Part shown: positions 35,882-37,366 of the stretch, piece after piece
How the letters are laid out: each line of letters starts with the position of its first letter
How positions within the stretch are numbered: position 1 is the stretch's first letter
IMG/VR virus record: IMGVR_UViG_2718218304_000001
Span: 50,160-114,159 of that record
DNA from: a virus
Taxonomy: Duplodnaviria > Heunggongvirae > Uroviricota > Caudoviricetes
Direction: 5' to 3' (one strand)
Length of the DNA: 64,000 bases
The notes under the pieces: generated by a model
The model's database searches: none
What the model was told of the DNA's origin: nothing
Seen by the model: the letters and a program-made list of their open reading frames with translations, nothing else
Made by a program: the position numbers and the translations under genes

Positions 35882-36268
35882 ATGTCTGATAACAAGATTG
35901 AATTTATAGAAAGTCGCTACGCTGCTTTTATCGCAGGGTTGATTGAATCCTCACCTATGAGTCAGGCCCAAATAGCCAGACTTATTGGTTATAAAAATGC
36001 CAACAACCTTTCTTTAATTAAAAGTGGCAAAATTCCTTTGCCTATCGATAAGGTTCGTCCGTTGGCGCTGGCGCTGGGTATTGAGCCAAGTCGTCTTATG
36101 ATGATGGTGCTGGAAGAACGCCAACCTGAACTCGCAGCATTTTTATACAAAGAAGGCACCGCTCCTCTTAACGAGGACGAAAAACAGGTTCTTGCTGCAT
36201 ATAACGAGCGATTCGGTAAAGAGAAAGGCGCATCACAAAAGGTTGTTGAGGCCATAAAGTCTCTATGA
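35882..36268 (+). CDS. HTH DNA-binding protein (XRE-like regulator)
   Basis: Predicted HTH (SQAQIARLIGYKNANNLSLIKSG); converges on the recombinase gene. Confidence 0.55.
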   Translation: MSDNKIEFIESRYAAFIAGLIESSPMSQAQIARLIGYKNANNLSLIKSGKIPLPIDKVRPLALALGIEPSRLMMMVLEERQPELAAFLYKEGTAPLNEDEKQVLAAYNERFGKEKGASQKVVEAIKSL

Positions 36269-37366
36269 AAAATTTACACGAATAAGCTCTGTTGATAGAC
36301 GATCTCCCTTGAATTTGTGGTCAATTTCGTCTAAATCCGGTTGCTCTACGATTGATGCGATGTACGTCGAGAAACTTTCTAAGGCGTCTCGCATCTCGTC
36401 CATATAATCGTGCCGGTCGTAGACTCGATCTATCCCCTCAAGACTGTGGTTCATGATTTTGCGTGATACCTCCTGGCTTATGCCTAATGCTGGGAAGTAA
36501 CTACGCGCAGTACGGCGCAAGTCTCGGGGTGTAAATGGCTCAAGCTCCATCAGTTCTGGTCGTTCCAGAATACGACGTAATGCCTGGGCTATTGCCACTT
36601 TAGACATAGGAAGGTCTTTCCCGATTTTTTTATTCGAAGGCACGAGCCACTGGCTGTCTTTACCATATTCGAACAACTCTTCAATACAAGTGCGCATTAA
36701 TGAGCTTAAAGGCAGAGAATGCTCACGGGCAGATTTGTTCCTCTTGCCTTGATTCCAAACCCCACGCTTAAGATTGAACTCACTTTTTTTAGCCCGCAGT
36801 ACTTCGTCAGGTCGTCTTGCGGATACAAGACATAGCCTGGCAGCCCATTTTGTACCAGCACACACATTGAAGTAGTCCCATATATTCCAGAACACCCATA
36901 CCTCTGCGTCGGTCAGCTTCCGCTCGCGAGGTGTGGGCTTTGCGCCACCGGCAACTTTGTTAAGTGACATATCGTTTAACGGTGACACGTCTATCATCCC
37001 CTGGAAGGCGCACCAGCTAAGGAACTGCTTCATCAGAGAGAAAACGCGGCGGCCCATAACAATTTTGCCATCCAGTATTAGTGGGTTGACCAGTTGGTTC
37101 ACCATGAACCTATTAATGTCACTTACTTTTACATCGGCAATGTGCGGCAAAACATGTATCAAAATACAATGAACAGCGATCTCTGGCCGACGTCTGGTTA
37201 TCAGCAGAGATAAGCGAGTGAATAACATGAATGCGTCCGAGAATCTCATGTCATTGCTAACCTGCGAGATCATAACGGCCTGCATTTGAGATGCTCTTTC
37301 GAGATACTCTATCGCCTCTTTTGAGGTGTTCTCCGCAGCGCGTGCTCTGTCAAAGCTATTTTTCAT
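36263..37366 (-). CDS. tyrosine recombinase / integrase family protein
   Basis: C-terminal catalytic region with RDLRRT box and conserved Tyr (VYDRHDY); 367 aa. Confidence 0.75.
   Translation of the reverse strand: MKNSFDRARAAENTSKEAIEYLERASQMQAVMISQVSNDMRFSDAFMLFTRLSLLITRRRPEIAVHCILIHVLPHIADVKVSDINRFMVNQLVNPLILDGKIVMGRRVFSLMKQFLSWCAFQGMIDVSPLNDMSLNKVAGGAKPTPRERKLTDAEVWVFWNIWDYFNVCAGTKWAARLCLVSARRPDEVLRAKKSEFNLKRGVWNQGKRNKSAREHSLPLSSLMRTCIEELFEYGKDSQWLVPSNKKIGKDLPMSKVAIAQALRRILERPELMELEPFTPRDLRRTARSYFPALGISQEVSRKIMNHSLEGIDRVYDRHDYMDEMRDALESFSTYIASIVEQPDLDEIDHKFKGDRLSTELIRVNFS

Follow-up and report, generated by a model that had tools for sequence, protein, structure and literature searches.

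Layout of the int locus and its phage-plasmid

The DNA analysed here is a stretch of 64,000 nucleotides (hereafter the window; positions 50,160 to 114,159 of IMG/VR virus record IMGVR_UViG_2718218304_000001), and this report concerns int, a tyrosine recombinase gene encoded on it, together with the palindrome found upstream of this gene. The int gene encodes a protein of 367 amino acids (aa) and occupies 36263..37366 on the - strand; its assignment draws on the open reading frame (ORF), matches to PF00589 and to part of PF22022, the catalytic residues and an AlphaFold model (AF2). On the + strand, at 35882..36268, lies a gene for a 128-aa XRE-family helix-turn-helix (HTH) regulator, identified by its ORF and by Pfam, phrog_8 and fold matches. 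The coding sequences of int and the HTH gene are convergent with a 6-bp overlap, and CTATGA contains the two stop codons; ORFs and arrangement are exactly as an earlier note on this DNA had placed them. A candidate core recombination site, AATGATTCCATAC-ATAGTAG-GTATGGAATCATT (37465..37497), made up of perfect 13-bp inverted arms around a 7-bp spacer, precedes the int start codon by 99 bp. The window contains this palindrome once, against 0 occurrences expected by chance. Read along the - strand, the order of features is the terminator of the glutaredoxin (grx) operon (37572-37547), a conserved flank, the palindrome, 24 bp, the -35 and -10 elements of a predicted int promoter (P_int), a LexA box and the start of int.

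The window shares 99.5% identity with IncFIB plasmids of E. coli of ~100-110 kb and 97.6% identity with phage Cyrano from strain LF82. NZ_CP124417, a relative with a complete sequence (108,564 bp), encodes RepA, ParA/ParB-like proteins, DnaE, a helicase, a ligase and a full siphovirus structural module. From these identities and this gene content, the element is therefore a phage-plasmid of the SSU5/pSLy3 type, and the label of phage-plasmid that it had been given from sequence was borne out. No site-specific recombinase besides int is annotated on the complete 108.5-kb relative.

The recombinase Int

For Int, matches were obtained to phrog_1 'integrase' (4.8e-47), to PF00589 (Phage_integrase, 2.9e-10) and to a portion of PF22022. 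Alignment of 44 homologues showed the catalytic residues R185, K211, R284, H307 and Y316 to be invariant or nearly so, with the first position of the HxxR motif occupied in this family by arginine (Arg281) instead of histidine. The model of Int (pLDDT 86.1) consists of a core-binding helical domain and a catalytic domain, with a predicted helical N-terminus. Its best Foldseek match is lambda Int 75-356 (E ~1e-6 to 4e-7; TM 0.72, target-normalised), followed at lower ranks by Tn1549 Int, XerH/XerA and IntI (2a3v); the match to Cre is weaker than that to lambda Int (E ~1e-2). A search of the PDB with the sequence of Int gave no match at E up to 1. Judged by its catalytic constellation and modelled two-domain fold, Int is a member of the tyrosine recombinase superfamily.

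The Int family comprises ~110 clusters (44-100% identity, 340-395 aa), possesses the domains PF22022 and PF00589, and has every named member among the Enterobacterales. The arm-type DNA-binding domain PF13356 was found neither in the Int query nor in any of the ~110 family clusters; it is present in the nearest relatives outside the family, the P4/CP4-57-type integrases (25-34% identity). In terms of descent, as read from these sequence relationships, Int is an offshoot of the P4-type integrases that is without the arm-binding domain. As Int lacks this domain, a simple site is to be expected for it.

A candidate recombination site next to int

A scan for the two exact arms separated by any spacer returned 7 contigs from 185,579 genomes (one per species) and 79 contigs from IMG/VR, and in all 7 species-representative contigs int adjoins the pattern. 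Together with annotated relatives and the window itself, these contigs gave 91 loci with the arm pattern. An Int homologue (57-100% identity) begins 44-100 bp from the palindrome in 90/91 of these, and the sole locus without one is cut by its own end. The arms, TGATTCCATAC, are unchanged down to 57% Int identity, and occur in this form in Serratia (60% Int identity). The spacer is variable even between Int proteins that are 98% identical, its variants including CTACTAT, CTATTAA, TTGTAAG, TTGGTAG, TTGGAAG, TATGTAA, TCTTTAG and TCCTTAG.

A second arm class, TGACTCCAGAC, accompanies Int homologues of 43-50% identity in Photorhabdus, Pantoea, Rahnella, Xenorhabdus, Providencia and Erwinia. The arms of the last five genera read (A/G)TGACTCCAGAC and are separated by 7 bp, and the site of Photorhabdus plasmid pPAU1 is TCTGACTCCAGAC-CTATAAA-GTCTGGAGTCAGA. 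The arms of the Kp 44-kb plasmid, GTGATTCCATAC, carry a symmetric A-to-G change. In these distant members both arms are altered symmetrically and the architecture is retained; a 13+7+13 arrangement near a recombinase gene was found in all lineages examined (14 by our count). The symmetric changes by lineage thus define two arm classes that track the Int clade. This linkage extends to elements with a different neighbour on the other side of int: Chimaeribacter plasmids have identical arms with an Int of 57% identity and an unrelated convergent gene in place of the HTH gene, and on megaplasmids of Pantoea and Rahnella the site is present and the HTH gene is absent.

An anchored alignment of 53 unique contexts showed the spacer to be quasi-palindromic (YT-nn-TA-n). 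It also revealed a conserved flanking motif at 37507..37521, consisting of a T-run and a GAAATCTG-like sequence (tCAGAtTTcAAAAAA in the int sense). This motif lies 12-27 bp outside the int-distal arm and is also found in Chimaeribacter, the Kp 44-kb plasmid and Pantoea; it may be an accessory site. The palindrome is very probably the site of Int. Two loci (L011 and L049) have a flipped spacer; this was considered as a sign of inversion and rejected, since with a quasi-palindromic spacer a mutational origin is more likely. The 13-mer was also compared by eye with parts of sigma-70 promoters, integration host factor (IHF) sites and Ter sites, and no convincing match was seen.

The convergent HTH gene and its putative operators

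The HTH protein gave weak Pfam matches (HTH_19/HTH_37) and a match to phrog_8 'transcriptional regulator' at 6.6e-12. Its model shows an XRE/Cro-type N-terminal domain followed by C-terminal helices, the best fold matches being C-proteins, SinR, the 434 repressor, HigA and Stl; an S24 cleavage domain is not present. The HTH family is confined to phage-plasmids of this kind. It has been described that its homologue in Cyrano, CYRAN_45, annotated as a 'putative repressor', is expressed ~10-fold over background in the lysogen (PMC9928086).

A promoter of the HTH gene, P_HTH, is predicted at 35808..35850 on the + strand, with -35 TTTACA, a spacer of 16 bp and -10 TAATAT (35808-35835), and with a putative HTH operator, GGTAAGCACTTACC, at +1. 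E. coli, Klebsiella and Y. pestis share this palindrome, and a related motif lies over the -35 element. A longer palindrome of 18 bp, TAGGTAAGTACTTACCTA, has 6 matches with <=3 mismatches in the window against 0.02 expected (217-234, 2435-2452, 11987-12004, 16671-16688, 54136-54153 and 58884-58901), with a core variant at +1 of P_HTH (35837-35850). These palindromes are likely to be operators of the XRE regulator or repressor of the phage-plasmid. Motifs of the form TTTACTTA occur upstream of the HTH gene in every lineage examined, in either arm class, and the recognition helix of the protein (NNLSLIKSGK) is nearly unchanged in Photorhabdus, though the arms there differ at 4/13 positions. Considering the distribution of the operators and the annotation in Cyrano, the HTH protein therefore looks like a genome-wide regulator with operators of its own. 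It probably does not serve as an accessory factor in recombination, and is best described as a putative prophage regulator or repressor.

The same evidence bears on the possibility that the 13-mers, the palindrome included, are bound by the HTH protein or by a host factor, with Int acting elsewhere or being vestigial. Such a binder would account for five exact 13-mers spread over 8.8 kb, three of them single half-sites, which resemble the dispersed asymmetric C1 operators of P1, and the HTH gene is genetically linked to int in most phage-plasmids. However, identical arms are found alongside Int where the HTH gene is absent, the arms differ between clades and the HTH recognition helix does not, and the HTH protein has a different and better-placed palindrome on its own promoter. 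The 13+7+13 geometry would also suit a recombinase dimer better than an XRE dimer. In addition, the palindrome is centred ~75 bp upstream of the P_int start and is consequently clear of that promoter, which counts against another binder. Binding of the 13-mer by the HTH protein was rejected because of presence/absence and co-variation, and this explanation as a whole is considered highly improbable.

The int promoter, its LexA box and expression

P_int was read from the sequence at 37412..37440 on the - strand, with -35 TTGATC (37435-37440), a 17-bp spacer and -10 TAATAT (37412-37417), and is conserved in E. coli, Klebsiella and Y. pestis. It was not returned by a consensus promoter scan because it matches 8/12 consensus positions. 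The predicted intrinsic terminator of the grx operon (37547..37572, - strand) would shield the site and P_int from upstream transcription. A GATC Dam site lies within the -35 element and is kept in the same three groups; one promoter of P1 cre is Dam-sensitive.

A perfect LexA (SOS) box, TACTGTTTACTTATACAGTA, was identified at 37393..37412, overlapping the -10 element and the start region of P_int, where LexA would be expected to repress transcription. It is the single match to CTGT-N8-ACAG in the window, where ~1 is expected by chance, and is unremarkable when taken alone. Its conservation is more informative: CTG-N10-CAG at P_int is retained in 82/82 loci with an Int of >=80% identity, the inner bases being variable. 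The box is also present in the Kp 44-kb plasmid and Serratia, and is missing in 8/8 loci of the group with 55-60% Int identity. The complete relative NZ_CP124417 has one further perfect LexA box, TACTGTATACACATACAGTA (79971-79990, corresponding to ~32972-32991 of locus L095, outside the window), ahead of a gene for a 129-aa S24 (LexA/UmuD-like) peptidase whose homologue in Cyrano is CYRAN_98.

It has been described that Cyrano is induced by genotoxic stress, including ciprofloxacin (PMC9928086). The S1 Table of that study gives log2 fpkm (fragments per kilobase per million) values for LF82 in LB, medium 1 h, medium 6 h, macrophage 1 h and macrophage 6 h. In this order they are 5.6/7.9/6.1/8.9/10.3 for int (CYRAN_44), 7.2/9.7/9.1/11.3/12.2 for the S24 gene CYRAN_98, 6.6/9.2/7.5/10.3/9.9 for the HTH gene (CYRAN_45), 4.3/7.0/6.0/8.7/10.8 for CYRAN_46 and 2.9/3.3/4.0/5.2/5.9 for cobT (PMC9928086). 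The change of int from 6.1 to 10.3 between medium and macrophage at 6 h therefore represents a rise of ~19-fold in macrophages. CYRAN_98 rises with int (9.1 to 12.2 in the same comparison), and the expression of CYRAN_46 parallels that of int over the five conditions. Together with the LexA box, this induction is consistent with SOS control of int.

CYRAN_46 is the homologue of a 70-aa gene (phrog_2627) at 35418..35630 on the - strand, that is, on the int strand, downstream of int and divergent from the HTH gene. A rival reading, which we regard as rather unlikely, is that the LexA-controlled promoter matters mostly as a transcriptional switch. In this scheme, once LexA is cleaved, transcription from P_int would proceed through int, collide with the HTH gene and cross it antisense, and continue into the 70-aa gene and cobT-cobS-dnaE, directing the element into the lytic pathway. 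Int could still be a recombinase under this scheme, the two roles being non-exclusive. The 3'-3' overlap of int and the HTH gene, an arrangement conserved across phage-plasmids, leaves no room for a terminator, and CYRAN_46 tracks int, with int, the HTH gene and CYRAN_46 converging at ~10-10.8 in macrophages at 6 h. The induction of Cyrano by ciprofloxacin, an HTH protein without an S24 domain, the two perfect LexA boxes of the complete relative and the dispersal of HTH-type operators over the genome would fit the scheme as well. On the other hand, the strandedness of the LF82 RNA-seq is not established, a weak terminator-like hairpin lies in the HTH gene on the - strand, and the 70-aa gene may have a promoter of its own. 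Furthermore, pPAU1 and the group with 59% Int identity possess the HTH gene without a LexA box, and the role of the HTH protein as master repressor is itself putative.

Isolated half-sites

The exact 13-mer arm is present in five copies in the window, the isolated ones being at 31434 (+), 39239 (-) and 40251 (-); no further exact copies were found in the complete relative NZ_CP124417. All three isolated copies extend to the 15-bp sequence ATGATTCCATACATC and point towards the palindrome. As half-sites of the form AATGATTCCATACATC they are located at 31434..31449 (+ strand; antisense in dnaE, codons 84-88, CMESL), at 39236..39251 (- strand; upstream of the tRNA cluster and abutting a CACAAC hairpin) and at 40248..40263 (- strand; over the opening codons, MIPYI with the start codon, of a 50-aa membrane ORF). 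The half-site in dnaE is the only 14-nt invariant block among 19 unique dnaE sequences, synonymous positions included, and third codon positions otherwise vary as usual in these sequences. Klebsiella and the group with 59% Int identity retain the half-sites, and elements of the Y. pestis type retain the copies in dnaE and in the small ORF. Neither pPAU1 nor a Providencia phage-plasmid, both of the other arm class, has them; the DnaE of the latter is without the loop concerned.

The sequences in spacer position next to the half-sites differ from one site to another in most lineages, and recombination among half-sites is therefore not a conserved function. The idea that each half-site is a full site whose second arm has degenerated was rejected: a weak second arm (7/13 at 8-bp spacing) is present at 39239 alone, and Klebsiella does not keep it. 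Int bound at these positions could steer replication or transcription towards the resolution site. It is doubtful, though conceivable, that after SOS induction Int would act at the three half-sites also as a regulator, roadblock or organiser and its promoter would silence the HTH gene, the recombinase then being an SOS effector of the lysis-lysogeny decision.

Plasmid distribution, integration and inversion

The int region was identified in 250/5,426 complete E. coli genomes, at 252 places, all of them on plasmids. The palindrome likewise occurs in 250/5,426 of these genomes, with one copy per replicon. PLSDB contains ~930 records that match Int. Neither int nor the palindrome was found on a chromosome in any of the 5,426 genomes (0 matches, the palindrome having been searched even at E <=10), in a survey that covers hosts other than E. 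coli less than exhaustively. The lack of a chromosomal match speaks against an attB on the chromosome, and hence against integration, one of the roles that the earlier note had offered for the recombinase. Occurrence on plasmids only, with one copy per replicon, fits a site that meets its partner only in a dimeric or concatemeric replicon.

Site-specific inversion, another of these roles, is equally disfavoured. A synthetic junction representing inversion between the 20-bp inverted half-sites (31434 x 40244/40251) was found in 0/378 plasmid records. That Int is a chromosomal integrase, or an invertase of the hairpin and tRNA segment, would be suggested by its nearest sequence relatives, the P4/CP4-57-type integrases, and by the 20-bp inverted repeats at 31434 and 40244 that flank the region. 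Against an integrase stand not only the plasmid-borne state of every E. coli copy but also the species-representative genomes, in which each of the 7 exact-arm contigs has int beside the site, and the missing arm-binding domain. Against an invertase stand the absence of the inversion junction, the constant orientation of the hairpins described below, and the fact that inversion at 31434 would break dnaE. For E. coli, integration and inversion are already largely refuted, and this explanation is regarded as extremely unlikely.

Hairpins, tRNA genes and other neighbouring features

Four tRNA genes (Ser, Thr, Tyr, Asn) are located at 38391-39044 on the - strand, ~1 kb from int, as had been noted, with the grx and gp49-family genes in between. 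Hairpins are found between and beside them at 38311-38388, 38575-38659, 38712-38791, 39311-39432 and 39504-39592. These fold far better than shuffled sequences (z -5.3 to -9.7), so that the hairpin family is real. They are local, with arms 38-82 nt apart, they have no similarity to the arms of the Int site, and their orientation relative to int is constant in 89/89 occurrences across related loci. The absence of shared sequence, the local arms and the invariant orientation rule them out as Int substrates. The suggestion that the inverted repeats at 38312-39430 serve the recombinase was thus not upheld, the hairpins being invariant and a better site lying elsewhere (37465-37497); the broader view, that this tyrosine recombinase serves the plasmid and that multimer resolution is one of its possible tasks, holds up. 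One isolated copy of the arm, at 39239-39251, abuts a hairpin but is a half-site alone.

An Rfam scan of 35300-40300 returned tRNAs only. Hairpins ending in CACAACG (38214-39600) coincide with homology breakpoints between relatives, and the blocks 38214-38498, 38482-38595 and 38776-40485 turn up independently of one another, which makes this zone of tRNAs and hairpins a mosaic in its own right. Relatives vary in the tRNAs that they encode, Cyrano being without tRNA-Tyr. Elsewhere in the window, at 21051-23390 on the - strand, a 779-aa RecA homologue is split by an intein with a LAGLIDADG homing endonuclease (Pfam RecA, Intein_splicing and LAGLIDADG_3).

A cargo hot spot beside the site

The int-distal flank of the palindrome showed 28 unrelated contexts in 88 loci, the int side being conserved. 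There is no cargo in the window. Elsewhere the cargo includes CYRAN_43 in Cyrano, which has been described as expressed 723-fold over background (PMC9928086), toxin-antitoxin and colicin-immunity genes in Klebsiella, a colicin-like gene in pPAU1, a pyocin/colicin DNase in Xenorhabdus, and the caf1 F1-capsule operon in Y. pestis pMT1. One and the same cargo (92% identity over 1.09 kb) adjoins int lineages that are only 77% identical, and identical int genes adjoin unrelated cargo. Many matches to E. coli sequences end exactly at window position 37497, the outer edge of the palindrome.

In Y. pestis pMT1 (NZ_CP033694; locus L003), caf1R-caf1M-caf1A-caf1 occupies the cargo slot at 112-5240 and the site lies at 5870-5902 of the locus. 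Photorhabdus pPAU1 (L093, 29 kb, RepB) encodes the int/HTH/palindrome module together with SSU5-like tail genes, a DUF1778/GNAT toxin-antitoxin pair and its colicin-like gene; from this gene content it looks like a decayed phage-plasmid.

One explanation of the hot spot is that Int recombines the site between co-resident replicons, so that fusion followed by a second crossover would swap the cargo, in the manner of a hot spot at res, dif or attI. The 28 unrelated int-distal contexts, the E. coli matches that end at the palindrome edge, the cargo shared by diverged int lineages and the unrelated cargo on identical int genes would all follow from such exchange. However, the variability starts ~25 bp past the arm, after the flanking motif, and continues to grx, gp49 and the tRNA/hairpin zone, and the same picture would arise if the neighbourhood of a selected site were exchanged by ordinary homologous or illegitimate recombination. 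Neither Cyrano nor the complete plasmid has a second site on the far side of the cargo, the spacers differ between lineages and would block cross-recombination, and a 394-kb cointegrate of K. pneumoniae is not fused at the site. Exchange of modules by Int is regarded as improbable.

Proposed role of Int and comparison with known systems

Int and its palindrome are best explained as a Cre/lox-like system for multimer resolution or cyclisation under SOS control, a proposal to which we assign a probability of roughly 0.55. Two Int monomers would bind the 13-bp arms of each site and exchange strands across the 7-bp spacer, the full site probably including the conserved flanking motif. With one site per replicon, and never a chromosomal one, the relevant reaction would therefore take place between two directly repeated sites in a dimer or concatemer. 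Its substrates would be plasmid dimers, or terminally redundant or concatemeric phage DNA, and its products monomer circles, as for Cre/loxP in P1. The sigma-70 promoter P_int, under LexA, would supply a low basal level of Int that is boosted at DNA damage; such damage raises RecA-dependent recombination or triggers prophage induction, with which the boost would coincide. The HTH protein would be a separate XRE-type regulator, with the operator GGTAAG-NN-CTTACC, and not the binder of the palindrome.

Several points weigh against this proposal. SOS control is unusual for a housekeeping resolvase, and the induction of int in macrophages could reflect other stresses, the log2 fpkm values for LF82 coming from RNA-seq for which strand-specificity is not established. 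Three strongly conserved isolated copies of the arm are superfluous for simple resolution. With a spacer so nearly symmetric, direction would be less well controlled if accessory sequences did not see to it, and hypervariable cargo directly beside the site also fits a role in exchange or capture. Literature searches with SSU5-type integrases and both arms gave no study of Int or its site, with one review of SSU5 plasmids outside reach.

Cre/loxP of P1, and likewise Dre/rox of D6, share with the Int system a recombinase gene with a single nearby site, 13-bp inverted arms and a plasmid prophage. Arm-type sites and an arm-binding domain are lacking in both, and the expected role in dimer resolution or cyclisation is the same. 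They differ in that Int has no detectable sequence relationship to Cre, its fold being nearer lambda Int (4e-7 vs 1e-2), and in the spacer, which is 8 bp in loxP and 7 bp and quasi-symmetric here. The flanking motif, the LexA box and the extra half-sites also set the Int system apart from Cre/loxP. The P4/CP4-57-type integrases share the PF22022 central and PF00589 catalytic domains with Int at 25-34% identity. They possess PF13356, whereas the Int family is without it, has arginine for the first histidine of HxxR and is never integrated in E. coli. The site of the P4-type enzymes is a complex attP matched to a tRNA attB; here it is a symmetric palindrome beside the gene.

Multimer resolution by tyrosine recombinases is known from TnpI/IRS of Tn4430, XerCD at cer/psi and ResD/rfsF of the F plasmid, in which a core site is combined with one-sided accessory sequence. 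The candidate accessory sequence on one side of the site here could similarly impose selectivity for deletion only; it is short in comparison, and SOS control and half-sites at kilobase distance are features of the Int system only. The IntI promoter is repressed by LexA, and the Int locus resembles IntI/attI in its LexA-box promoter, in the position of the site upstream of the gene and in the highly variable cargo next to it. It differs in having a double-stranded palindrome and whole-operon cargo, and the Foldseek match of Int to IntI (2a3v) ranks below that to lambda Int. No attC-like elements were seen bracketing the cargo, attC not having been searched for specifically.

A LexA box on a phage-plasmid promoter beside a putative immunity regulator recalls 186 tum, N15 antC and GIL01 (PMC11652158). 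The LexA-controlled gene here is a recombinase and not an antirepressor, and any effect on the HTH gene would come through convergent transcription. Inversion systems such as the Rci shufflon and those of the Fim type show both orientations among isolates, in contrast to the 0/378 junctions and the single hairpin orientation (89/89) found here.

Significance

Annotations of the genes were public beforehand; what is new, judging by the literature that could be searched, is the site with its Int co-variation, along with the SOS box and the polar half-sites. If Int recombines the palindrome, the two would form an uncharacterised pair of recombinase and target not detectably similar to Cre in sequence. 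Its arm specificities, of which nature provides two or more, and its many natural spacers would make it of use in genome engineering. In the dnaE half-site, a DNA signal is plainly held invariant inside coding sequence.

For the biology of the elements, the system would provide a maintenance or resolution function of phage-plasmids that are very common in Enterobacterales (~4.6% of complete E. coli genomes), in a family that also includes elements of Klebsiella and Salmonella and Y. pestis pMT1, with the F1 capsule operon beside the site. If the proposed control holds, the LexA box would make recombination at a cargo hot spot, and perhaps prophage induction as well, responsive to DNA damage, including that induced by antibiotics.

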